A stretch of DNA of 7,238 nt. Source: a virus. The stretch covers positions 1 to 7,238 of IMG/VR virus record IMGVR_UViG_3300035530_000070; one strand, 5' to 3'. This document shows positions 1 through 7,238 of the stretch, one piece after another. The notes under the pieces were generated by a model. That model was not told the origin of the DNA, ran no database searches, and worked only from the letters and a program-made list of their open reading frames with translations. The translations under genes were made by a program, and so were the position numbers. How positions within the stretch are numbered: position 1 is the stretch's first letter; every line of letters begins with the position of its first letter.

Positions 1-127
1 AAGAGGTGACGCTTTCAGCCAGTGAAGGAAGCCAAGCGTTTATAGGTTTATTGTTAGCAGACATTTTGAACACTCCAGAATAGTGTAAGATTAAATTAAC
101 AAATATATGATTAATTGGAACAACTCA
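1..127. repeat. Terminal redundancy copy A, identical to 7112-7238. Bases 1-64 duplicate the 5' part of the minus-strand 60-aa ORF.
   Basis: Base-by-base comparison of 1-127 with 7112-7238 shows no mismatch. The repeat is direct and ends exactly at both window edges. Confidence 0.97.
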
Positions 128-172
128 GATAATATTGGAATTATTCAAATTAAGCAAGCATAGGAGAACGCC
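65..172. promoter_or_regulatory. Divergent control (switch) region between the plus-strand HTH regulator (ATG at 173) and the minus-strand phage operon (ATG at 64, equivalent to 7175).
   Basis: This is a 108-bp AT-rich non-coding gap between divergent start codons. The direct repeat ATTGGAA occurs at 114-120 and 134-140 (20-bp spacing), flanking the candidate -10 boxes of both strands. GAAT-T-ATTC is a small palindrome at 138-146. AGGAG at 162-166 is the Shine-Dalgarno sequence for the regulator. Confidence 0.55.
129..157 (-). promoter_or_regulatory. Candidate sigma70-type promoter for the minus-strand operon.
   Basis: On the minus strand the sequence reads TTGCTT (157-152), a 17-nt spacer, then TATTAT (134-129). 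This would give a leader of roughly 55-60 nt before the ATG at 64/7175. It was found by pattern match only. Confidence 0.35.
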
Positions 173-535
173 ATGAAACTAGAAATGCTCATAGCAAGAG
201 CTAAATTTTACGAGAAAACACAAAAGGCAATAGCTAAAAAATTAGCTATATCTGAAACTAAATTTAGCGACTGGAAAAAAGGAAAGACAAAACCAACACC
301 GTTTGAAATATTCCAAATGGCAGAATTAGCAAGGCTTGAGCCAGAAAAGACATTCTATGATGTGATGACAGAAATTGATAAAGAAAACGAGAAATATTGG
401 TGCGCTCGACTGGAATCGAACCAGCGACCCTCGGCTTCGGAAGTCGTGAGCTTACAATTATTATTTACATTTATTTACAATGTAATCCAAAATTTGAAAA
501 TTAAAAGGGTATTATTTACTGAAGTAAACGTATAA
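173..535 (+). CDS. XRE/Cro-C1-type helix-turn-helix transcriptional regulator, the putative phage repressor. The C-terminal 45 codons run through the attP/tRNA fragment and the adjacent arm.
   Basis: AGGAG lies 6 nt upstream of the ATG. Residues ~15-55 (TQKAIAKKLAISETKFSDWKKGKTKPTPFEIFQMAEL) fit the HTH_3 pattern (helix, turn, recognition helix, W..G...P). The gene is divergent from the replication/structural operon, as rstR is in CTXphi-type phages. From codon 76 (TGG at 398-400) the ORF is tRNA-derived sequence read on the opposite strand. Confidence 0.75.
   Translation: MKLEMLIARAKFYEKTQKAIAKKLAISETKFSDWKKGKTKPTPFEIFQMAELARLEPEKTFYDVMTEIDKENEKYWCARLESNQRPSASEVVSLQLLFTFIYNVIQNLKIKRVLFTEVNV
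398..447 (-). other. 3' portion of a tRNA-Arg(CCG) gene (anticodon loop through CCA). It is the probable attP core for the phage integrase and is not an intact tRNA.
   Basis: The reverse complement reads ACGAC-TTCCGAA-GCCGA-GGGTC-GCTGG-TTCGATT-CCAGT-CGAGCGC-A-CCA. That gives an anticodon loop with U33 and CCG, a 5-nt variable loop, a T arm with the GGTTCGAnTCC box, a 7-nt acceptor 3' strand, discriminator A and CCA. The 5' anticodon-stem strand pairs at only 3 of 5 positions. No D arm and no GCGCTCG acceptor 5' strand follow. Confidence 0.8.
461..519 (+). repeat. Three copies of TTATTTAC beside the attP core: a tandem pair at 10-bp phase (461-468, 471-478) and a third copy at 512-519.
   Basis: The sequence reads ttatttacat ttatttacaa at 461-480 and attatttact at 511-520. 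The copies lie 14-70 bp from the tRNA-derived core on the integrase side. Confidence 0.5.
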
Positions 536-558
536 TCATACTCATACCAGGAAGAAAT

Positions 559-813
559 ATGAAATCAATAAAAGTAAATTATATTAATTCATGCGATGTT
601 AGAACGAGCACTACGCTATCAAGAAATATTTGCATTTTCTATTGTGAAAAAGTCTTAGGAATGAAAAGGCACCCACTTGATAGCGATAGATTTATAATTA
701 TGGAAATTAACAACTTTGCACTGATGGGAAGATACAAAGGAAAAGATGAAATAGAAAGAGCATTACTAGAAAAAATACATCAATCAAGCAAAGAAACAGA
801 TTCGACATACTGA
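559..813 (+). CDS. Hypothetical 84-aa protein. It converges on the integrase gene and overlaps its 3' end by 34 nt. A recombination directionality factor role is possible but unsupported.
   Basis: AGGAAG lies about 5 nt upstream of the ATG at 559. No motif was recognised. The ORF lies in the attP-int interval, which could equally be non-coding arm DNA. Confidence 0.3.
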   Translation: MKSIKVNYINSCDVRTSTTLSRNICIFYCEKVLGMKRHPLDSDRFIIMEINNFALMGRYKGKDEIERALLEKIHQSSKETDSTY

Positions 814-1607
814 GCATAATCCAAATGGACATAGCGCATCGTACTTTCAATATCGCCATGCCCTAACAAATCTTTAATGGTATAAATACCAACTCCTTTT
901 TGAATGAGCCATGACGCGTAAGTATGGCGTAAATCATACATAGTACAATTCACATTAGCCCTTTTTTTACACCTTGCAAATGATTTTGTAAATGTGGTGT
1001 ATGGCTTGCCTGTTTTTGGATTTATGAAAACGTGAGTGCCTAGCCGCTCCTTACTCTCCAATAGGGCAAAGGCTGTGTCATTGAGATATTTATATAAGGT
1101 CTTTTTGGTTTTACTGTAGTGATTTCTCACTATGAATTGTCTTTTATCAAGATGGACGTTAGACCATTCTAAGGTTAATAATTCAATGGGACGGCAGCCA
1201 GTCATTGTTAATAAGACAATGAAGTCATGCAATTCATGATGACCAGTAAGTAAGGTTGCAGACAAAAGCCGCTCATATTCTAAGCGGCTTAAATAGTTTG
1301 GGATATGGTCAGATTCTATGAACTTCACTTTCTCAAAAGGGTTATTCAGTGTTATTTCATAATCTGACATAACACAATTAATGGCAGCCCTGGCAAATGA
1401 TAATTCTCTATTGATGGTCGCATTGGATACAACAAGACGCCTAACTTTTGCATATTGTTTGACATGAATTTTGCGTAAGTCTTTGAGCAAGAAAGCATCA
1501 AAATAGCCTAAGCTATCCGCCCTATACTGATAACGATGTTTACCAGTCAATCCATAATCTTGATAATACGCAATAACTTCCGATAGTTTATAAAACATGA
1601 TTTTCAC
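780..1607 (-). CDS. int: Tyrosine recombinase / phage integrase. It is small (272-275 aa, Xer-like size). The start is GTG at 1607 or ATG at 1598.
   Basis: Catalytic signature read by eye: TGCRPIELLTLEW (Arg I), SKTKKT (beta-hairpin Lys), DLRHTYASWL (His-x-x-Arg), LLGHGDIESTMRYVHL (His and the nucleophilic Tyr). It lies next to the tRNA-derived attP candidate. Confidence 0.9.
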   Translation of the reverse strand: MKIMFYKLSEVIAYYQDYGLTGKHRYQYRADSLGYFDAFLLKDLRKIHVKQYAKVRRLVVSNATINRELSFARAAINCVMSDYEITLNNPFEKVKFIESDHIPNYLSRLEYERLLSATLLTGHHELHDFIVLLTMTGCRPIELLTLEWSNVHLDKRQFIVRNHYSKTKKTLYKYLNDTAFALLESKERLGTHVFINPKTGKPYTTFTKSFARCKKRANVNCTMYDLRHTYASWLIQKGVGIYTIKDLLGHGDIESTMRYVHLDYAQYVESVSLLD

Positions 1608-1637
1608 TCTATAAGGGCAAAATTACCCGAGTGAACT

Positions 1638-2681
1638 CTATTTGACTTTTGACAACATTCCAGCGTTCTCTAAGAGATAGGTACATTCAGCAGCAGAAAT
1701 ATTATGTAAACGATTGCCATTTTTATTGAAAGCAACGCAAGCGTTGCCTTTCATCATGGCATTGACAGGCGCAAGATTGGCATCTTGGTAATAACCTCCA
1801 GTAACAGGATTAAAGACTTGTTGATTGTCATTGGTATTATTACCACCTACAGTGACAGGCTTTATATTGTCGGCATTGGAGGATTGAGTGGGCGTTAATG
1901 GGTTAGGTGATTGCTCATTACCACCGACTACGACAGGCGTTACATTATCTGTTAATAACTTTTTGCTGTCTGATTTTCCTAGACTGGCATCAATCTTGGC
2001 TTGTTGTTCAGCAGCCGCTTTTTCAGGATTGATAAATTTATCCGTTTCTGATGACATGGCGAATTTCATTATTAAGCCAATAATTACAATCAGCGCACCG
2101 ACCATGATAAATAACTTTTTAGGTACTTTTAGCTTAACAGTATGCTCGACAGCAGAATTATAGAATTTATACAAGTCTTTGCGATAGTTAAAGATATATT
2201 GGTTTTCGGCGCGGTCTTTTGCAGTGCGACCGTCAGGTGTTTTTTCAACTTGTCGCCAAAAGTAACAGCTTGCTAAGTTTGCACCGTAAGGCCTTACAAG
2301 GTGAATATGCTCATTGGTCACATCAAGTACATCATTATGAAGCAATCTAGGCATCTGAGTAATAAACCATATATCACGGTTACCGTGTCTATGAATGGTC
2401 AAGTCTCTAACTATTTGTTCTTTAGATGCGCCACGATTGGCAGCGAATACATCACGCAACTGGGCTTCGTCATAAATAATGGTGCTACCTTCGGGCGTGT
2501 CTCTCCAATCGTCAGGACTAGGCAAAACGCCATCTATTTTTAAGCCATTAATATCAGCATAAAAATTGCGTTTTTTGTTAATGTCTTTTTCCTTCTCACT
2601 AGCTTCAATCGCTGCTACTAAATCAGAAACGGCTTTTAATGTTTTGCCAGTGCCTGGACGACCCGTGTAAAGACGAATCAT
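1638..2681 (-). CDS. Inovirus assembly ATPase of the pI/Zot family (347 aa).
   Basis: The N-terminal Walker A is GRPGTGKT and the Walker B is IIYDEAQ. The Zot-family block LTIHRHGNRDIWFITQ is present. A single transmembrane helix (LFIMVGALIVIIGLIMKFAM) is followed by a ~140-aa C-terminal domain. The ATG lies 1 nt after the stop of the upstream pVI-like ORF (TGAtATG). Confidence 0.92.
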   Translation of the reverse strand: MIRLYTGRPGTGKTLKAVSDLVAAIEASEKEKDINKKRNFYADINGLKIDGVLPSPDDWRDTPEGSTIIYDEAQLRDVFAANRGASKEQIVRDLTIHRHGNRDIWFITQMPRLLHNDVLDVTNEHIHLVRPYGANLASCYFWRQVEKTPDGRTAKDRAENQYIFNYRKDLYKFYNSAVEHTVKLKVPKKLFIMVGALIVIIGLIMKFAMSSETDKFINPEKAAAEQQAKIDASLGKSDSKKLLTDNVTPVVVGGNEQSPNPLTPTQSSNADNIKPVTVGGNNTNDNQQVFNPVTGGYYQDANLAPVNAMMKGNACVAFNKNGNRLHNISAAECTYLLENAGMLSKVK

Positions 2682-2682
2682 A

Positions 2683-2967
2683 TCAAGCCCCTTTTTTAAT
2701 TAAGGACAGTTTCATACTATTCATAGTGACCCGAGCAATCAACGCCCCAATGACAACAGATAACGCAATATCAAAGCCCGATAAATGGAGAAATGAAGCC
2801 ACGACAGCATCAAAACCTTGCATTTGTTGTAATGCCTGATTTATATATCTTTCAAGTACAGTTTTCATAACAACAGCAGACGCAAGACCAAGACCAGCAC
2901 CAAGCAAAGCCGTTTTAACTGAACCCTGCAAAAGAAATCCGCCAACCAAGTATAATAACTTACCCAT
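2683..2967 (-). CDS. pVI/Ace-position small membrane protein (94 aa), a putative minor coat protein.
   Basis: A strong AGGAG lies 8 nt upstream of the ATG. The protein has Gly/Ala-rich hydrophobic segments. It sits immediately upstream of the pI/Zot gene, as gVI does in Ff and ace in CTXphi. The assignment rests on position and composition only. Confidence 0.55.
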   Translation of the reverse strand: MGKLLYLVGGFLLQGSVKTALLGAGLGLASAVVMKTVLERYINQALQQMQGFDAVVASFLHLSGFDIALSVVIGALIARVTMNSMKLSLIKKGA

Positions 2968-2984
2968 TGTTATAACTCCTATTT

Positions 2985-3048
2985 AAAGTGCTTCATGCTG
3001 CGTGTACGTCCGTCCGTGGGGCGGGCGTCACGCATCACAAAGCACTTT
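2985..3048. other. A 64-nt imperfect hairpin with a GC-rich core in the pIII-like/pVI-like intergenic gap.
   Basis: Pairings: 2985-2993 AAAGTGCTT with 3040-3048 AAGCACTTT (9 bp); 2999-3004 TGCGTG with 3029-3034 CACGCA (6 bp); 3006-3014 ACGTCCGTC with 3020-3028 GGCGGGCGT (9 bp including 2 G-T). The loop is CGTGG. There is a 5x5 internal loop and one bulged T. The core is strikingly GC-rich in an AT-rich genome. Confidence 0.65.
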
Positions 3049-3056
3049 CTATATTA

Positions 3057-4229
3057 TTATTCTTTTGAAGTGCTTCGACCAACGCCCGAGATTATGTAAG
3101 CAGCGGACAAGTAACCAGCACCGACAATAAAAGGCTTTAAGGCTGACATAACGGTACAAATAGGCGCATAGTCAAAAGAAAACGGAACAGTGTTACCCAT
3201 GATTGACAATGAAGCGGTATAGTTTGGAGGGCATGAACCAGTAAACGTTATATAACTTTTATCGCTATCGAAATCATCAAGAGGACTATCAATAATAACT
3301 TCGGTATCAGTGGGAGTAGGTTCGGCAGGCGGTTCAGATTGAAAAAAGTCAGACAAACCAGTAATAGAAGATAGAATGCCCGCAAGCAAGGCTTTAAGCG
3401 CATTGATAGCGGAAATAATACCAGCAGGGTCAAAAGGTTCAGCAGGTGCGTCGGGGTCTTTGGGAGGATTTTCAGTATCAGGCGGATTTTCTGTGCCAGT
3501 TTCAGTAGCAGCAGCGTCTAGCGCAGCGTCATGTTCACCAGCAGCAAAACCCTCTAAAGCGGTAGCTTTTACAGCTTCTTGGCTTGGAGCATGACCAGCT
3601 TCAGCATTGGCAATGACTTTTGCAGCAACGGTGTCAATAGGTATGGTTTTCCAATTCTCAGAGGGAGCAGGAGGATTGGCAGGACTGGAAGTGGGAGCGT
3701 AATAACAAGCAATTTTAGTAGAAGTTTTATATTCAAAGCCCACATACTTATAAGATGGGCTAACATACTGGTTACAACCAACATTAGGACTAGCGTAATA
3801 CTGACTGCTCCATGACCACATTTTTCTATCTTCATTCCAAACTAACTCGTAATTTTCAAAAGCGCCAGCTGGAATAGTGTCAAGAGGAGTATCGGAAACG
3901 GTTTTATACTTAACAGCATTATTGGCAGGGTCAAGAACCCAATCAATACCAGCATCTAATAACTCAACCATTGCAAAAGCAAGAGCAGCAGCACCACCGC
4001 CTTTTATTAAATGCTTACCGACTTTAGCAGCAGACGGCGCAACAGTAATAGCAGAGTTTAAGACTTTACCGCCAGCCGTTTTGGTTGCGTTAATTGTGTT
4101 AGTAGCACCAGCAGTGATTGTATCAAGAGCAGTCCAACCGCCAACGGAGGTGTTAGCATATGCCATTGGAGGCGAAAGGATAAGCAGCGCAGATAATGCG
4201 AATATCAAAAAGCGTTTGAAATAGCTCAT
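3057..4229 (-). CDS. pIII-like adsorption / minor coat protein (390 aa from the ATG at 4229).
   Basis: The signal peptide is MSYFKRFLIFALSALLILSPPMAYA, followed by NTS. An N-terminal domain is followed by a Pro/Asp/Glu-rich linker (TGTENPPDTENPPKDPDAPAEPFDPAG). The C-terminal hydrophobic anchor ends in basic residues (GAGYLSAAYIISGVGRSTSKE). It is the largest structural ORF and lies between the major coat gene and the pVI-like gene. The track's TTG start at 4247 has no Shine-Dalgarno sequence. Confidence 0.7.
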   Translation of the reverse strand: MSYFKRFLIFALSALLILSPPMAYANTSVGGWTALDTITAGATNTINATKTAGGKVLNSAITVAPSAAKVGKHLIKGGGAAALAFAMVELLDAGIDWVLDPANNAVKYKTVSDTPLDTIPAGAFENYELVWNEDRKMWSWSSQYYASPNVGCNQYVSPSYKYVGFEYKTSTKIACYYAPTSSPANPPAPSENWKTIPIDTVAAKVIANAEAGHAPSQEAVKATALEGFAAGEHDAALDAAATETGTENPPDTENPPKDPDAPAEPFDPAGIISAINALKALLAGILSSITGLSDFFQSEPPAEPTPTDTEVIIDSPLDDFDSDKSYITFTGSCPPNYTASLSIMGNTVPFSFDYAPICTVMSALKPFIVGAGYLSAAYIISGVGRSTSKE

Positions 4230-4288
4230 TTTAGTATCAGCCAGCAAGCAGCAACAAAGACTAAAGCAGGAATAATATTAACTAACAT
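4226..4288 (-). CDS. Candidate 20-aa hydrophobic micro-ORF (MLVNIIPALVFVAACWLILK), translationally coupled to the pIII-like gene.
   Basis: My own translation of the minus strand. AAGGA lies upstream of the ATG at 4288. Its TGA stop overlaps the pIII-like ATG as ATGA (4229-4226), and that ATG otherwise lacks a Shine-Dalgarno sequence. It is below the ORF-track length cut-off. Confidence 0.3.
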   Translation of the reverse strand: MLVNIIPALVFVAACWLILK

Positions 4289-4317
4289 AATCTCAATTTC
4301 CTTAAATCATCTTAGTT

Positions 4318-4344
4318 AATAGAATGGGAGCGAGTAACCGCCCC
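4318..4344 (-). terminator. Possible weak intrinsic terminator or attenuator just downstream of the major coat gene.
   Basis: The minus strand reads GGGGCG-GTTACT-CGC(T)CCC followed by ATTCTATT. That is a 6-bp GC stem with one bulge and a U-rich but interrupted tail. The position matches the terminator after gVIII in Ff phages. Confidence 0.3.
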
Positions 4345-4370
4345 CACTAGTACAACTAACGAGAGGTTGC

Positions 4371-4610
4371 TTACACCACACCGCGAATAACTTTCCAACC
4401 ACGGATTGCAACACGTACACCAAGATATGCAGCACCAACAACACCAACAGGAACGATTAGACCAGTTAATGACGCAGCAACGTCAGATACATCAATAGCC
4501 AAAGGTTCAGCAAATGAAGCAGCAGAAGTAGCAACCAAAGCACCAGCAGCAGCAACTTTACCTAAAAAAGTCATGCCATTTTTTTCACGTACAACGATTT
4601 GATTTTCCAT
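4371..4610 (-). CDS. Major coat protein precursor (pVIII-like), 79 aa from the ATG at 4610.
   Basis: AAGGA lies 8 nt upstream of the ATG at 4610. The signal peptide ends ...ATSAASFA, before EP. The predicted 45-aa mature part, EPLAIDVSDVAASLTGLIVPVGVVGAAYLGVRVAIRGWKVIRGVV, has an acidic N-terminus, a hydrophobic core and a basic C-terminus. This is the classic inovirus coat architecture. Confidence 0.85.
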   Translation of the reverse strand: MENQIVVREKNGMTFLGKVAAAGALVATSAASFAEPLAIDVSDVAASLTGLIVPVGVVGAAYLGVRVAIRGWKVIRGVV

Positions 4611-4620
4611 TTGGAAATCC

Positions 4621-4806
4621 TTATTTTTTAATGAAGCCACCAATGGCTCGAAATCCCCACGCAGTAACCAAGACTAGCACCACCAATGAACCAAGATAAT
4701 TCCATTCAGCGATAGTGAAGTCGGGTAGCATAGGCGCAGGAGAATCTATAACTACCCATTCCATGCACGTTTGACTAGCTTCGTCTAAAGTTTGACAAGC
4801 GTACAT
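4621..4806 (-). CDS. 61-aa small membrane protein in the gVII/gIX position, a candidate minor coat or assembly-initiation protein.
   Basis: AAGGA lies 7 nt upstream of the ATG and overlaps the upstream TAA. The C-terminus has a transmembrane helix (LGSLVVLVLVTAWGFRAIGGF) and ends in IKK. It lies between the ssDNA-binding candidate and the major coat gene. Confidence 0.5.
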   Translation of the reverse strand: MYACQTLDEASQTCMEWVVIDSPAPMLPDFTIAEWNYLGSLVVLVLVTAWGFRAIGGFIKK

Positions 4807-4817
4807 AGCGGAATCCT

Positions 4818-5102
4818 TTATTTATTAACGATTGGCTGAACGTCAGTGACAATCATTTTTGTGTTTTTGCCTGATGTTACGATTTCCATTTCAATATTTG
4901 CTTGAATTGGAAATTTAAGCATTTTGATTTTTTCAAAATTGTCAGACAAACCCCAGTTATATTCAGCGCCAGCAAAGCCGACCATTTCACCTGAATCAGA
5001 GTTCATTTTGGTCTGCACGTAAATTTTAGTGCTGTCATAGGGACGACCTTCCATTTCACCCTTTGAACGTTTTGCACCAGTGATAACGACTTGTTGTAAC
5101 AT
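4818..5102 (-). CDS. Candidate ssDNA-binding protein (gV/RstB position), 94 aa.
   Basis: AGGAG lies 8 nt upstream of the ATG and overlaps the rep TAG stop. The ORF is of the right size and sits immediately after the replication initiator, as in Ff and CTXphi-like phages. The sequence looks beta-rich. No motif was recognised, so the call is positional. Confidence 0.5.
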   Translation of the reverse strand: MLQQVVITGAKRSKGEMEGRPYDSTKIYVQTKMNSDSGEMVGFAGAEYNWGLSDNFEKIKMLKFPIQANIEMEIVTSGKNTKMIVTDVQPIVNK

Positions 5103-5113
5103 GGTTTATACTC

Positions 5114-6289
5114 CTAGAATGGTATAGCGCACTTTTGATGATTGTCCGACCACGGCGCATAACTTGGCGGATTTTTGATAAACTTTTCATGAACTCTTAA
5201 ACGTTTTGGATAGAAGTCTTTTTTCTCTGTTTGGAGAAGGTCAAGAATCTTGCTATCGTCAGGCACTAGATGACCGTTGCTGTCTTTTTTCACAAACAAT
5301 TCACGATAAGCAGCGATATAGCGTCCAGCTTGACGTTTCCATATTTCAATAGATTTATTTAGGCTGATTTCAGCTTCTTTTTGTGTGCAAGGGATACGGC
5401 TCACCGTGTCCAATATCTCACCTTTTGCGTGCTCGATAAGCTCCAAGCAGTAAGGATAAGCACCAGCAAAGTATTCAGTCGGACTGATTAACATTTCAAA
5501 GGGCAGATGACGACCAGCAGAGCCAAATTCTATTTCACTTCTGAACCAGGGGCTTTCAGCATCGCCGAACTTTTTGCCTTTTTCATAGCCACGGTATAAT
5601 TTGCCATTCTCACGTTTGCCTATTTGGAGCGTACGACCCGCACCAGTGGGACGTTTCCAGTCGCCTAAGTGCTGGACAGTTGGTAGCTTGTTAGTTAGGG
5701 CAAACATACCTTGACTGTCAGCAGTGTCAGCGATTTCAGGCGATGAGTAAGAGCCTTCAAAGTCGTCATGTGCTAAATCAATGCGCGTTAGCTTTGGATT
5801 GACAGCATCACACTTTAAAAAGTTATAAAGGTTATGTTCCCAGTAGTTATCAGCGTATTGGCAGCCAGTACCAGTAACCATAATCAGCACAGTGTTAGCT
5901 TGGCCACCGATGCCAATAGTTCCGAGCTTTGCGTCATTGCTTCCAATGGTGAAGCCATACTTATAAAAGTGAATACCTTTACCGTTATAGGTGACGTTTG
6001 AGAAGTCAGAGCCGAAAATGTCAGATAAAACGGTACTTACATCGAATATAAATTCTTTAATTAGTTCTAATTTTTCAGCTTCGGGCATTTCTGTGTCATT
6101 CAACACGCCTTCAAAATCGCCATAGGTTTCAACATGGGTGACGAAGTTGACAGCATCAATGATGACTTGTTCATGGCCGACTGGCACACGTATAGGTATA
6201 AGCTCAACGCCTTTTGAAGTTCGGACAGTGAGCTCTTGCTTAGATGCAATGGCAGAAATCTTTTTTCTATAGTCAAGTGTCGTTTTCAT
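5114..6289 (-). CDS. Rolling-circle replication initiator of the Rep_trans (pT181 RepC / CTXphi RstA) type, 391 aa from the ATG at 6289.
   Basis: Blocks typical of the family as recalled: LTRIDLAHDDFEG, GKLYRGYEKGKKFG (candidate catalytic Tyr context) and WFRSEIEF. It is the first large gene of the operon. The track's TTG start at 6415 would overlap the upstream ORF by 53 nt and read through a hairpin, so the ATG at 6289 is preferred. Confidence 0.85.
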   Translation of the reverse strand: MKTTLDYRKKISAIASKQELTVRTSKGVELIPIRVPVGHEQVIIDAVNFVTHVETYGDFEGVLNDTEMPEAEKLELIKEFIFDVSTVLSDIFGSDFSNVTYNGKGIHFYKYGFTIGSNDAKLGTIGIGGQANTVLIMVTGTGCQYADNYWEHNLYNFLKCDAVNPKLTRIDLAHDDFEGSYSSPEIADTADSQGMFALTNKLPTVQHLGDWKRPTGAGRTLQIGKRENGKLYRGYEKGKKFGDAESPWFRSEIEFGSAGRHLPFEMLISPTEYFAGAYPYCLELIEHAKGEILDTVSRIPCTQKEAEISLNKSIEIWKRQAGRYIAAYRELFVKKDSNGHLVPDDSKILDLLQTEKKDFYPKRLRVHEKFIKNPPSYAPWSDNHQKCAIPF

Positions 6290-6308
6290 GTCAAATATCC
6301 GTCCCGTT

Positions 6309-6336
6309 ACCCCCGTGTTACAAATGGGGGTTTTTT
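6309..6336 (+). terminator. Terminator-like hairpin plus T6 run on the PLUS strand, antisense to the rep leader.
   Basis: ACCCCCGT (6309-6316) pairs with ATGGGGGT (6324-6331) around the 7-nt loop GTTACAA. It is followed directly by TTTTTT (6331-6336). It lies in the 73-nt gap between the 80-aa ORF and rep. Confidence 0.35.
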
Positions 6337-6362
6337 CGTTCCCACGATTTATACGTCTAGTT

Positions 6363-6605
6363 TCATTTATCGAAAAATAATCTGATATTTTCGTTTTCAC
6401 TGCGGATAATGTCAAGGTAAGTTGAAATCATGACGGCAGATAGATTATTATCAGCAGCGATGTATTCAAGATATTCCAAGCACTCCTCTCCAATGTCGGC
6501 AACGTTACCAGTAGAGATAACAGAGCTTGCACGCTCAGAGATAAGACGAGCGGCAAAGTTAATAGCTGCTTGATTAAATTCTATTTCATTCGAGTAAAAA
6601 ATCAT
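6363..6605 (-). CDS. Hypothetical acidic 80-aa protein immediately upstream of rep.
   Basis: It is an ATG-initiated ORF co-oriented with the operon, and its AT-rich codon usage resembles that of its neighbours. No motif was recognised. Confidence 0.55.
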   Translation of the reverse strand: MIFYSNEIEFNQAAINFAARLISERASSVISTGNVADIGEECLEYLEYIAADNNLSAVMISTYLDIIRSENENIRLFFDK

Positions 6606-6627
6606 GAGCTACCGCCCTTCGGTTGCT

Positions 6628-6687
6628 GGGTCAATCATTAATAATTGATAACTAAAAAGACAGTTATCAATGATTAATGATTCGACC
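6628..6687. repeat. Long AT-rich inverted repeat (hairpin/cruciform) in an intergenic gap.
   Basis: Arm 6635-6653 (TCATTAATAATTGATAACT) pairs with arm 6662-6680 (AGTTATCAATGATTAATGA) at 18 of 19 positions. The loop is AAAAAGAC. The stem extends with one bulge to GGTCAA (6629-6634) and TTCGACC (6681-6687). A separate small GC hairpin lies at 6607-6627 (AGCTACCG-CCCTT-CGGTTGCT). Confidence 0.75.
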
Positions 6688-6688
6688 T

Positions 6689-6778
6689 CTAAATCTTGTT
6701 AAAAATCATTGCTACACCATAAGCAGCAAGAGACATAATGAAAAAGATGGTAGAAAATACAGCTATGAAATCAAGCAT
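6689..6778 (-). CDS. Candidate 29-aa hydrophobic micro-ORF (MLDFIAVFSTIFFIMSLAAYGVAMIFNKI).
   Basis: My own translation of the minus strand. Its ATG overlaps the stop of the upstream 69-aa ORF as TAATG (6780-6776). It forms a single transmembrane-length hydrophobic stretch with a basic end, similar in size to Ff pVII/pIX. It is below the ORF-track cut-off. Confidence 0.35.
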   Translation of the reverse strand: MLDFIAVFSTIFFIMSLAAYGVAMIFNKI

Positions 6779-6987
6779 TAGATTAAGTCCTTAACGTTGC
6801 CATTGGAGACACTGACAGGACGAAAGAAGTAAGAACGCAAAACATGATGAATGGCATAAGCTAGAAAATAAAACACAAACAACGTCATCAATATTAATAA
6901 GGCAATAGCTAGTTTTTGTTGCTGTAGTTCGAGTAATAATTGGTCAGAGACTAAAAGATTGACGCCAAAGAAAGGTTGATAGTTCAT
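6778..6987 (-). CDS. Hypothetical 69-aa membrane protein (from the ATG at 6987).
   Basis: GGAG lies 8 nt upstream of the ATG at 6987, within TTGGAGTGACTACTATG. The upstream ORF's TGA stop lies inside this spacer. A central transmembrane helix is present (LAIALLILMTLFVFYFLAYAI). The track's GTG start at 6996 adds 3 codons. Confidence 0.55.
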   Translation of the reverse strand: MNYQPFFGVNLLVSDQLLLELQQQKLAIALLILMTLFVFYFLAYAIHHVLRSYFFRPVSVSNGNVKDLI

Positions 6988-6992
6988 AGTAG

Positions 6993-7175
6993 TCACTCCA
7001 AGTTCAAAGGCTGATTGCAGCCATTAACAGGAGGGCAGAAAAAGATGCCCCCATCCGTTTCTGCCTCATCCGTATCAGGGATATGCTCGGAAACTTCTGG
7101 AGGACAGGGGCAAGAGGTGACGCTTTCAGCCAGTGAAGGAAGCCAAGCGTTTATAGGTTTATTGTTAGCAGACAT
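6993..7175 (-). CDS. Hypothetical 60-aa acidic, Pro-rich, 4-Cys protein. It is the first gene of the minus-strand operon.
   Basis: GGAG lies 8 nt upstream of the ATG at 7175, within CTGGAGTGTTCAAAATG. The sequence is MSANNKPINAWLPSLAESVTSCPCPPEVSEHIPDTDEAETDGGIFFCPPVNGCNQPLNLE, with a CxC...Cx5C cysteine pattern. Its 5' end lies in the terminal redundancy and is therefore also present at 1-64. Confidence 0.55.
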   Translation of the reverse strand: MSANNKPINAWLPSLAESVTSCPCPPEVSEHIPDTDEAETDGGIFFCPPVNGCNQPLNLE

Positions 7176-7238
7176 TTTGAACACTCCAGAATAGTGTAAG
7201 ATTAAATTAACAAATATATGATTAATTGGAACAACTCA
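7112..7238. repeat. Terminal redundancy copy B, identical to 1-127. It marks circular closure.
   Basis: Same comparison as for copy A. Position p here equals p-7111 in the unique unit. Confidence 0.97.

Follow-up and report, generated by a model that had tools for sequence, protein, structure and literature searches.

Integration-dependent immunity, a genetic switch described as unusually simple, has up to now been reported only from actinobacterial phages. It is known from the mycobacteriophages BPs, Brujita and Charlie, from Clusters G, I, N and P, and from some Gordonia phages (Broussard et al. 2013; PMC4557955, PMC3694055, PMC9262239). In BPs the phage attachment site (attP) lies in the repressor gene gp33 and the bacterial attachment site (attB) is a tRNA-Arg gene (PMC4557955, PMC9262239). 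The viral form of gp33 has 136 amino acids, carries an ssrA-like tag and is degraded, and the prophage form of 103 amino acids is stable and active (PMC4557955, PMC3694055, PMC9262239). The stabilised gp33 mutant A135E reportedly gives more lysogeny or immunity and fewer virions. Mismatches in the core keep the tRNA pairing, and neither a recombination directionality factor nor arm-type sites are present (PMC4557955, PMC9262239); the repressor and integrase (Int) genes are co-transcribed, and Int is also tagged (PMC4557955, PMC3694055, PMC9262239). The only parallel among filamentous phages is phiRSS0 of Ralstonia, in which a dif-type attP lies at the 3' end of ORF13, an open reading frame (ORF) for a helix-turn-helix (HTH) protein, and integration through XerCD changes the product from 156 to 130 amino acids (Yamada 2013, PMC3816273). 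For phiRSS0 it was proposed, and is still a hypothesis, that the protein functions differently once the phage has integrated (PMC3816273). In phiRSM1 and phiRSM3, also of Ralstonia, attP is the reversed 3' end of tRNA-Ser(UCG) with a 13-nt core and is used by a small serine recombinase; it lies between the recombinase and repressor-like genes, and is described as between ORF14 and ORF15 (PMC3816273). Here we analyze a stretch of 7,238 nucleotides, positions 1 to 7,238 of IMG/VR virus record IMGVR_UViG_3300035530_000070 (hereafter the window), which carries the genome of a filamentous phage (inovirus) of Psychrobacter. Comparison of natural attP, attB and prophage-junction sequences makes it close to certain that attP of this phage is a tRNA-derived core situated inside the gene for an HTH regulator.

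Tyrosine integrases that target tRNA genes, such as those of P4, HP1 and L5, use attP sites with the crossover in the anticodon stem-loop; in these classical systems the phage copy restores the tRNA, int adjoins attP, and attP is normally intergenic. Sites of this kind have reportedly been classified by Williams (NAR, 2002). CTXphi encodes no integrase of its own and relies on XerCD for integration at dif; its HTH repressor RstR is divergent from the Rep_trans module and exists as several alleles on a conserved backbone, and rstR is not known to be interrupted by attP. The locus described here resembles the classical sites in that the tRNA is restored by the phage copy and int is adjacent, but its attP is translated, as codons 76-90 of the regulator. 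It shares with RstR/RstA of CTXphi a small HTH repressor gene divergent from a Rep_trans module and the existence of divergent alleles on a conserved backbone, but differs in encoding its own integrase and in having attP inside the repressor gene. Like phiRSS0 it is an inovirus with attP at the 3' end of an HTH regulator gene, and integration truncates the protein by a new stop; unlike phiRSS0 it has a tRNA-derived core and a phage-encoded tyrosine integrase, the tRNA is reconstituted, and the regulators are unrelated. Like phiRSM1 and phiRSM3 it has its own recombinase and a tRNA 3'-end attP between recombinase and repressor-like genes, but the recombinase is of the tyrosine rather than the serine type and attP lies inside the repressor ORF.

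The similarities to BPs are the most extensive. Both have the attP core in the repressor ORF, a tyrosine integrase, attB at a tRNA gene and a tRNA that is reconstituted; both have a shorter prophage repressor with its stop at or near the host side (136 to 103 amino acids in BPs, 120 or 136 to 96 here); and in both the mismatches between phage and host cores are harmless to tRNA pairing. Both integrases are small. The present phage has no obvious directionality factor, and an arm-binding domain is unlikely in its integrase, but ORF84 and the conserved TTACA repeats of the P' arm make a likeness to BPs on these points less certain. The differences are also considerable. The host is a gammaproteobacterium and the phage a 7-kb single-stranded DNA (ssDNA) inovirus, as opposed to a siphovirus of 40-50 kb; the proteins have no detectable sequence relationship; the regulator gene and int are convergent rather than in an operon, and neither repressor nor Int carries an ssrA-like -LAA tag; and in most Psychrobacter relatives the viral tail overlaps the 3' end of int in antisense. 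The original prediction for this locus, made from the sequence alone, had considered a regulator gene reading through attP to be unusual. The principle is in fact already known, with experimental precedent in BPs and its relatives (PMC4557955, PMC9262239) and one described in phiRSS0, where a role is still hypothetical (PMC3816273); what is new is its occurrence in integrase-encoding inoviruses of Gammaproteobacteria. A full-text literature search yielded no account of an integrase-encoding filamentous phage with a tRNA-derived attP in a regulator gene, and no paper on Psychrobacter filamentous phages bearing on such an arrangement.

The reverse complement of 398-447 reads, part by part, ACGAC TTCCGAA GCCGA GGGTC GCTGG TTCGATT CCAGT CGAGCGC A CCA. 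It starts in the 3' part of the anticodon arm, with a CCG loop and the 3' stem strand, and also comprises a variable loop of 5 nt, a T arm, the acceptor 3' strand, discriminator A and CCA. The T stem pairs fully (G-U, C-G, U-A, G-C, G-C); the D arm and the acceptor 5' strand are missing, and the 5' anticodon-stem strand matches at only 3 of 5 positions. The minus strand of 398-441 corresponds to the 3' 44 nt of tRNA-Arg(CCG), tRNA positions 33-76, and is identical at 44/44 positions to the tRNA-Arg(CCG) genes called by ARAGORN beside related prophages at loci L006, L140 and L142, which bears out the tRNA 3' portion that had been read on this strand. Positions 398-441 are the common core, a block shared by attP, both prophage junctions and attB, on either side of which the sequences diverge at once. 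The predicted extent of 398-447 is therefore correct for 398-441, which is shared with the host (to 442 in hosts with T32), and too long by 442-447, which are phage-specific. Since 173 + 225 = 398, the regulator ORF meets the fragment exactly at codon 76; it enters at TGG (W, the complement of CCA) and reads through, as had been proposed, the core codons being translated as WCARLESNQRPSASE.

As expected for a fragment, no intact tRNA was called in the window: ARAGORN found none, only positions 33-76 of the cloverleaf being present, and Rfam gave no tRNA match. The only nearby Rfam match was to HPnc0260, a Helicobacter antisense RNA (300-436; 45.9 bits against a gathering score of 59). It scores below gathering and was dismissed as evidence for a small RNA, since the HPnc0260 model finishes in sequence antisense to the 3' end of a tRNA, which accounts for the match. 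Exact searching for the 44-mer among 185,579 species-representative genomes gave zero matches, but a relaxed pattern search of such genomes gave matches almost exclusively in Psychrobacter, so that the bacterial tRNA-Arg(CCG) sought as the counterpart of the fragment was found and the host genus identified. Native Psychrobacter tRNA-Arg(CCG) is identical to 398-441 at 39/44 positions. All five differences fall in the T stem (window 409-424; ACT..AG in the phage, GCG..CA in the host) and are compensatory, so that pairing is kept. Among the loci gathered (L numbers), 95 copies of the block are intact tRNA genes without an adjoining regulator, and 95/95 have the GCG..CA stem (plus strand). The exact phage T-stem variant thus appears to be phage-borne rather than a native tRNA. 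Absence of the 44-mer had at one stage counted against a host match; this was overturned by the relaxed search and by the junction comparison, in which the variant is found installed in lysogens.

A protein search with the regulator identified 74 clusters of homologues (P numbers). Those ending in (T/A)DTLSN occur on contigs with bacterial flanks, namely in P. urativorans ACAM311 (L003), a 3.4-Mb genome (L004) and P. faecalis (L005), and also on the bacterial-flanked metagenome contigs L006 and L140-L142. In all bacterial-flanked loci the prophage has a SIR2-family gene on one side and a cytochrome c gene on the other, with the gene order alike, and ARAGORN calls an intact tRNA-Arg(CCG) at the regulator-side junction, on the opposite strand and overlapping the 3' end of the regulator gene. 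Longer forms are found mostly on contigs of ~7-9 kb, several of which have the core at both ends, that is, terminal redundancy. The identical 120-amino acid ORF was also found on other contigs of 2.7-7.1 kb, and the two of these displayed carry phage genes only. An exact look-up of the window integrase in the assembly collection returned no record.

The junctions themselves are simple. The attP of the window has the order regulator flank, 44-bp block, phage arm (agtcgtgagc...); the regulator-side prophage junction has regulator flank, block and host tRNA 5' half (..ccgatactctatccaactgagctacgagcgc); and the distal junction has host downstream flank, block, phage arm and int. For attB, 66 Psychrobacter loci have the two L005 prophage flanks joined directly, with one 77-nt tRNA at the join. 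Sequences of attP, attB, the prophage junctions and a tandem junction all align on one 44-bp block, the last coming from L004 (3020-17508), a head-to-tail tandem prophage dimer whose internal junction has the attP form. Relatives integrated at tRNA-Arg(CCG) with both attachment junctions, and empty sites in the 66 loci, thus agree with the original prediction, as does the position of the regulator gene beside a reconstituted tRNA. In P. faecalis, an attP-type junction and a tRNA junction are separated only by a run of N (L005 10226-10545), a layout that suggests either a tandem array or a mixture of episomal and integrated forms.

The T-stem differences also allow the crossover to be mapped, using polymorphisms in two independent prophages, one of which was recovered from two samples. 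Phage-type T stems occur in chromosomal tRNA genes only beside a prophage regulator, at L140 (10229-10305), L141, L142 (10241-10317) and L006 (2971-3047). In L140/L141 and in L142 the phage T stem (ACT..AG) stays with the regulator flank and the host T stem (GCG..CA) with the host downstream flank. Because these differences are kept with their original flanks, strand exchange must take place between the T stem and the end of identity, at 425-441 (CGACCCTCGGCTTCGGA), which corresponds to regulator codons 85-90. This segment spans G49 (the first T-stem base), the variable loop, and the loop and 3' stem strand of the anticodon arm; the cleavage sites probably flank the anticodon loop. Exchange here puts the crossover inside the regulator ORF, as had been predicted, and leaves lysogens with a chimeric tRNA-Arg(CCG): the regulator-side junction acquires the phage T arm, and the host T arm stays at the distal junction. 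Minimum free energy folding of the chimeric tRNA gave no cloverleaf, a result treated as uninformative; ARAGORN accepts the chimeric tRNA.

These comparisons also dispose of the idea that the tRNA-like stretch is a decayed tRNA gene or a chance resemblance and not a functional attP. The lack of an intact tRNA in the window and of the 44-mer in species-representative genomes is what such an origin would predict, but related prophages are bounded by the exact block at tRNA-Arg(CCG) with empty sites elsewhere, and the phage-type T stem has been installed in chromosomal tRNA genes of lysogens. We consider this explanation refuted by the junction comparison and the empty sites, and its probability negligible. 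Three grounds had been named for rejecting the original prediction, namely no matching tRNA, integration at an unrelated site, or a crossover outside the ORF, and we encountered none of them.

The regulator ORF (173-535, plus strand; 120 amino acids in the viral form) consists of an HTH domain (codons 1-75), the attP core (codons 76-90) and a phage-specific tail (codons 91-120), the last being the 30 codons VVSLQLLFTFIYNVIQNLKIKRVLFTEVNV. Pfam matches to HTH_3 and HTH_31 are sub-threshold for the regulator itself (18 bits for HTH_3, against a gathering cutoff of 23), but precomputed HTH_3 matches are listed for many of its homologues, and it matches PHROG families of transcriptional regulators and repressors. 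An AlphaFold2 model of the 120-residue form has a mean predicted local distance difference test (pLDDT) score of 84, with means of 86-93 for 10-residue blocks over residues 1-80. The model has a five-helix HTH domain at 3-68, a sixth helix at 70-82 that crosses into core-encoded residues, and a long helix at 88-119 of lower confidence (pLDDT 72-80). Foldseek matches of the N-terminal 60 residues include P22 c2, ImmR, DdrO, TP901-1 CI and 434 Cro, with probability 1.0 and template modelling scores of 0.6-0.7 as normalised by target length. The regulator is thus a predicted DNA-binding protein of the cI/Cro type (XRE, HTH_3), and in the model the DNA-binding fold is complete before the core.

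All 74 clusters have the core-encoded sequence W-C-A-R-x-E-S-N-x-R-P-S-A-S-E, or a single-residue variant of it, at the same place. Twenty (20/74) end in (T/A)DTLSN, with a total length of 96-101 amino acids; the remaining 54/74 have diverse phage tails of 7-78 amino acids, most often 46 (total 136), and viral forms of 120-168 amino acids. The two forms are identical up to E90. Beyond E90, the prophage frame runs on the antisense strand of the host anticodon stem and D arm, encodes (T/A)-D-T-L-S-N there and then meets a TGA stop in the tRNA D-loop, antisense to the conserved D-arm GCUCAG, giving a 96-amino acid product. Integration therefore shortens the regulator from 120 amino acids (136 in most relatives) to 96, and replaces its C-terminal tail by host-encoded residues, as had been anticipated. 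Long and short forms with identical N-termini occur as pairs (P0066/72, P0067/73, P0070/74), and the L004 dimer has a 160-amino acid copy at its internal attP and a 96-amino acid copy at the terminal junction within one genome. At least four divergent N-terminal types of the regulator (33-60% identity), each with its own N-terminal sequence signature, share identical or almost identical tail/int modules (P0064-P0074 compared with P0002/P0008). As far as can be judged from the sequences, this variety with a common tail and int indicates module shuffling at the core, and the divergent types are possibly heteroimmune repressor alleles, by analogy with rstR of CTXphi.

A central question is whether the long reading frame is selected. 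The main rival to a regulatory switch is that the frame is a neutral by-product of genome compaction: a regulator gene without a stop of its own abuts attP, the HTH domain (residues 1-75) suffices, and the isoforms behave alike. On that account pre-core stops would be expected among 74 clusters that range down to 33% identity. None was found; all 74/74 enter the core in the same frame, across at least four allele types, and even at Y75 (TAT), one substitution away from a stop, no cluster is terminated. Early stops would likewise be expected in the AT-rich phage arms (22-47% G+C). Yet in 22 distinct arms, of ~10 mutually unalignable types, the median open stretch beyond the core is 45 codons in the regulator frame, compared with 6 and 14 in the other frames, and the regulator frame is the longest in all arm types but one (per-arm shuffle P values 0.009-0.24). 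In the tRNA antisense the same frame has only 6 codons past the core, and the others have 11-15 and 14-37. Nor is the openness intrinsic to the frame: elsewhere in int, the antisense in the corresponding phase has stops at 4-7% of codons. Nearly all viral forms are hydrophobic over the first 18 residues of the tail, and the same design is functional in BPs (PMC4557955). Together, the frame data argue with moderate strength that selection favours extended read-through in the episome but minimal read-through after integration. A metagenome scan for regulator-core junctions yielded 4 contigs, too few for analysis of nonsynonymous to synonymous substitution ratios.

What the tail consists of bears on the same question. 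The P' arm (442-535, plus strand), delimited by junction alignment, tail classification and codon alignment of arms, encodes the tail and its stop and is parted from the regulator gene upon integration. Repeat analysis identified three TTATTTAC(A) direct repeats in it, at 461-469, 471-479 and 510/512-520 (461-520 overall, plus strand); TTATTTACA is present twice at 461-479 with a third copy at 510-520, and TTACANNNNNTTACA occurs once in the window, compared with 0.01 occurrences expected by chance. TTACA-N5-TTACA is kept in most related arms and its spacer varies at all codon positions. Conserved pentamers with a varying spacer are a DNA-level rather than a protein-level signature, and the repeats are probably a binding site for a protein, either the integrase or an accessory factor. 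Codon alignment of the 22 distinct arms divides the tail in two parts. The first ~15 codons come from the AT-rich arm that holds TTACA-N5-TTACA; in most relatives a further ~31 codons are antisense to the C-terminus of the integrase, including the catalytic-Tyr region. The TAA stop of the regulator in the modal 136-amino acid forms lies opposite the conserved integrase motif TIKDLLGH (L005 2559-2656, with equivalents in L140, L152, L143 and L069). The convergent regulator and int genes of these forms overlap by ~95 nt in the episome, and integration abolishes the overlap.

Several of these observations weigh against a selected switch and are accommodated by the neutral explanation. Because the arms are related by descent, the frame statistics cannot count as independent tests, and their support is only moderate. 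Tail sequences and lengths (7-78 amino acids) are not conserved, and where conservation of the tail at the protein level was sought, only the DNA motif and the antisense of int proved to be conserved, which together explain what conservation there is. Viral tails of 7-8 amino acids, as short as the prophage tail, occur in 2/54 clusters (P0056 and P0061, each a single contig) and argue against a strict requirement for a long tail. No recognisable degradation tag was found: the viral C-termini (-EVNV, -APANL, -APINP, -EALG, -QATT and others) include none that is -AA-like or like the -LAA of ssrA, and Int C-termini (-SVSLLD, -ALALID, -VELIN, -VEKIS) have no tag either; another degron in the viral tail, for example the hydrophobic stretch, is possible. 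In the window, as in all relatives, the regulator gene (+) and int (-) converge rather than being co-transcribed as in BPs. Finally, the HTH fold of the AlphaFold2 model is complete before residue 70, and three frames are all open through the core. Considering both sides, we regard neutral compaction as a serious alternative whose probability nevertheless falls below one half.

The sequences show the attP core (398-441) to be recombined with the tRNA-Arg(CCG) gene by the convergent 275-amino acid tyrosine integrase, with exchange within 425-441, after which the regulator gene abuts a reconstituted, partly phage-derived tRNA. The regulator then reads antisense into the 5' half of the host tRNA and stops at the D-loop TGA, and a viral protein with a hydrophobic tail becomes a 96-amino acid prophage protein ending in (T/A)DTLSN. 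We propose that this tail swap couples regulator activity to the integration state, as in the integration-dependent immunity of mycobacteriophages. On this proposal the divergent Rep module would be repressed by the short prophage form, which would be stable and active, and the long episomal form would be destabilised or less active through its hydrophobic tail; integration would also end the convergent overlap of the regulator and int transcription units. From the conservation of the frame and the analogy with BPs, we judge the chances to be about even that the tail swap reports integration state and that the short form is the stable repressor. The fuller proposition, that integrase-encoding inoviruses of Psychrobacter have independently evolved a switch like that of the actinobacteriophages, with an unstable or inactive long form and a stable 96-amino acid form, is put forward more tentatively, as somewhat short of an even chance.

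The polarity could also be the reverse, with the long form competent, its tail helix serving oligomerisation or membrane association, and the prophage form weaker or of altered specificity; in the episome, the long form would then govern copy number or the expression of host genes. The continuous helix predicted at 88-119 (pLDDT 72-80) would fit such a role, although long single helices are a common AlphaFold2 output for hydrophobic stretches. There are also precedents: Yamada proposed that the full-length product of phiRSS0 ORF13 regulates host genes and the truncated form immunity (PMC3816273), and the 136-residue form of BPs gp33 may activate Prep (PMC4557955). A specific interaction surface should be conserved, however, and tails of different arm types are unalignable. 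Moreover, the tails are partly dictated by the antisense of int, and regulator alleles have been shuffled relative to the tail/int modules, as in P0064, whose N-terminus is divergent and whose tail is the same as in P0008. Reversed polarity therefore seems unlikely to us.

Should the switch with a stable short form prove real, it would extend integration-dependent immunity to Gammaproteobacteria and to ssDNA inoviruses with their own tyrosine integrase. The unrelated proteins and different gene orientation argue for convergent evolution, and the switch, far from being peculiar to actinobacteriophages, would then be a general one at which unrelated viruses had arrived separately. Integration would also uncouple the regulator and int transcripts, which overlap, and place a phage T arm in the host tRNA-Arg(CCG). 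Since attP, attB, both junctions, a tandem junction and both isoforms are available as natural sequences, the proposal is directly testable. There are practical consequences for annotation as well. Annotations of these prophages routinely give the regulator differing lengths, and contigs from metagenomes are broken at the core. In addition, the T arm of a tRNA in a lysogen can be of phage origin, making the tRNA chimeric.

The contig breaks were seen in several records. Contigs L144, L149, L150, L156 and L157 (from IMG/VR and metagenomes) have their start or their end within a few bases of the 44-bp block, as expected if assemblers stop where episomal and integrated forms diverge, and such ends provide a practical signature for finding attP sites of this kind. 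The same tRNA-Arg(CCG) block is also used by a second, unrelated element, which is integrated there in at least 10 Psychrobacter representative genomes. Its arm starts GGCTAGAACCACCATATTTCGTTAAAT, and the regulator frame closes after 7 codons there. Loci with this element are L025 7517, L029, L042 5617, L057 5922, L065 2396, L082 7027, L083, L096 6162, L114 7720 and L123, with a variant in L013 5876. Both the second-element arm (L042) and an inovirus-type arm (L043) are present on a single contig, NZ_JBJDOS010000007.

The genome as a whole is that of a filamentous phage encoding its own tyrosine integrase. Positions 1-127 are identical to 7112-7238, and this terminal redundancy reduces the window to a circular molecule of 7,111 bp; the window is the circular replicative or virion (episomal) form of a Psychrobacter inovirus, with an intact attP. 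Most genes are on the minus strand, including a Rep_trans initiator, an ORF of the size of an ssDNA-binding protein, coat protein B, a large minor-coat ORF, DUF2523 and a Zot-like ATPase. Pfam matches were obtained to Rep_trans, Phage_Coat_B, Zot and DUF2523 (pVI-like), and the small circle, the Rep_trans protein, the major coat protein B, the Zot-like assembly ATPase, DUF2523 and the conserved gene order are those of inoviruses. The Rep protein resembles those of CTXphi-like, Ralstonia and other inoviruses. Neither megablast with the genome nor tblastn with the regulator gave a match in a collection of 50,697 deposited phage records, and thus the family is absent from the sequenced phages of that collection.

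The regulator ORF is divergent from the Rep module and convergent with int. The intergenic region between it and the Rep module (74-172) has two ATTGGAA-containing repeats 20 bp apart and is presumed to be a promoter/operator region; a scan of 1-1000 for promoters and terminators gave nothing above shuffle background. The integrase gene (780-1607, minus strand; 275 amino acids) was identified by a Pfam Phage_integrase match (E = 3e-24) and by PHROG integrase families. It adjoins the Zot gene, and the catalytic domain is at residues 106-264. At only 275 amino acids the protein is unlikely to have an arm-binding domain of the lambda type. Homologous int genes lie beside the distal junction in every prophage examined.

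Between attP and int the window has an insertion of about 300 bp (~491-800) that is lineage-specific, without counterpart in relatives. The distance from the int stop to the core is 338 nt in the window, compared with 44-46 nt in relatives and 146 nt in L004. The insertion carries ORF84 (559-813, plus strand), an ORF call of 84 amino acids that is preceded by a good ribosome-binding site, matches nothing in Pfam or PHROG and overlaps the 3' end of int by 34 nt. As a result of this insertion the window tail is shorter than, and different from, the modal 46-amino acid tail antisense to int. L142 has a different small cargo, a 90-amino acid ORF, between attP and int, and the spacer between them appears to be a hot spot for cargo. 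Two hairpins were also noted in the window. One, at 2980-3053, lies between the DUF2523 and minor-coat genes and has 25-nt arms that are 80% complementary and a 24-nt loop; it also gave a spurious Rfam microRNA match. The other, at 6633-6682 upstream of the Rep module, has 21-nt arms that are 95% complementary and an 8-nt loop. Both are candidates for a packaging signal or replication origin.

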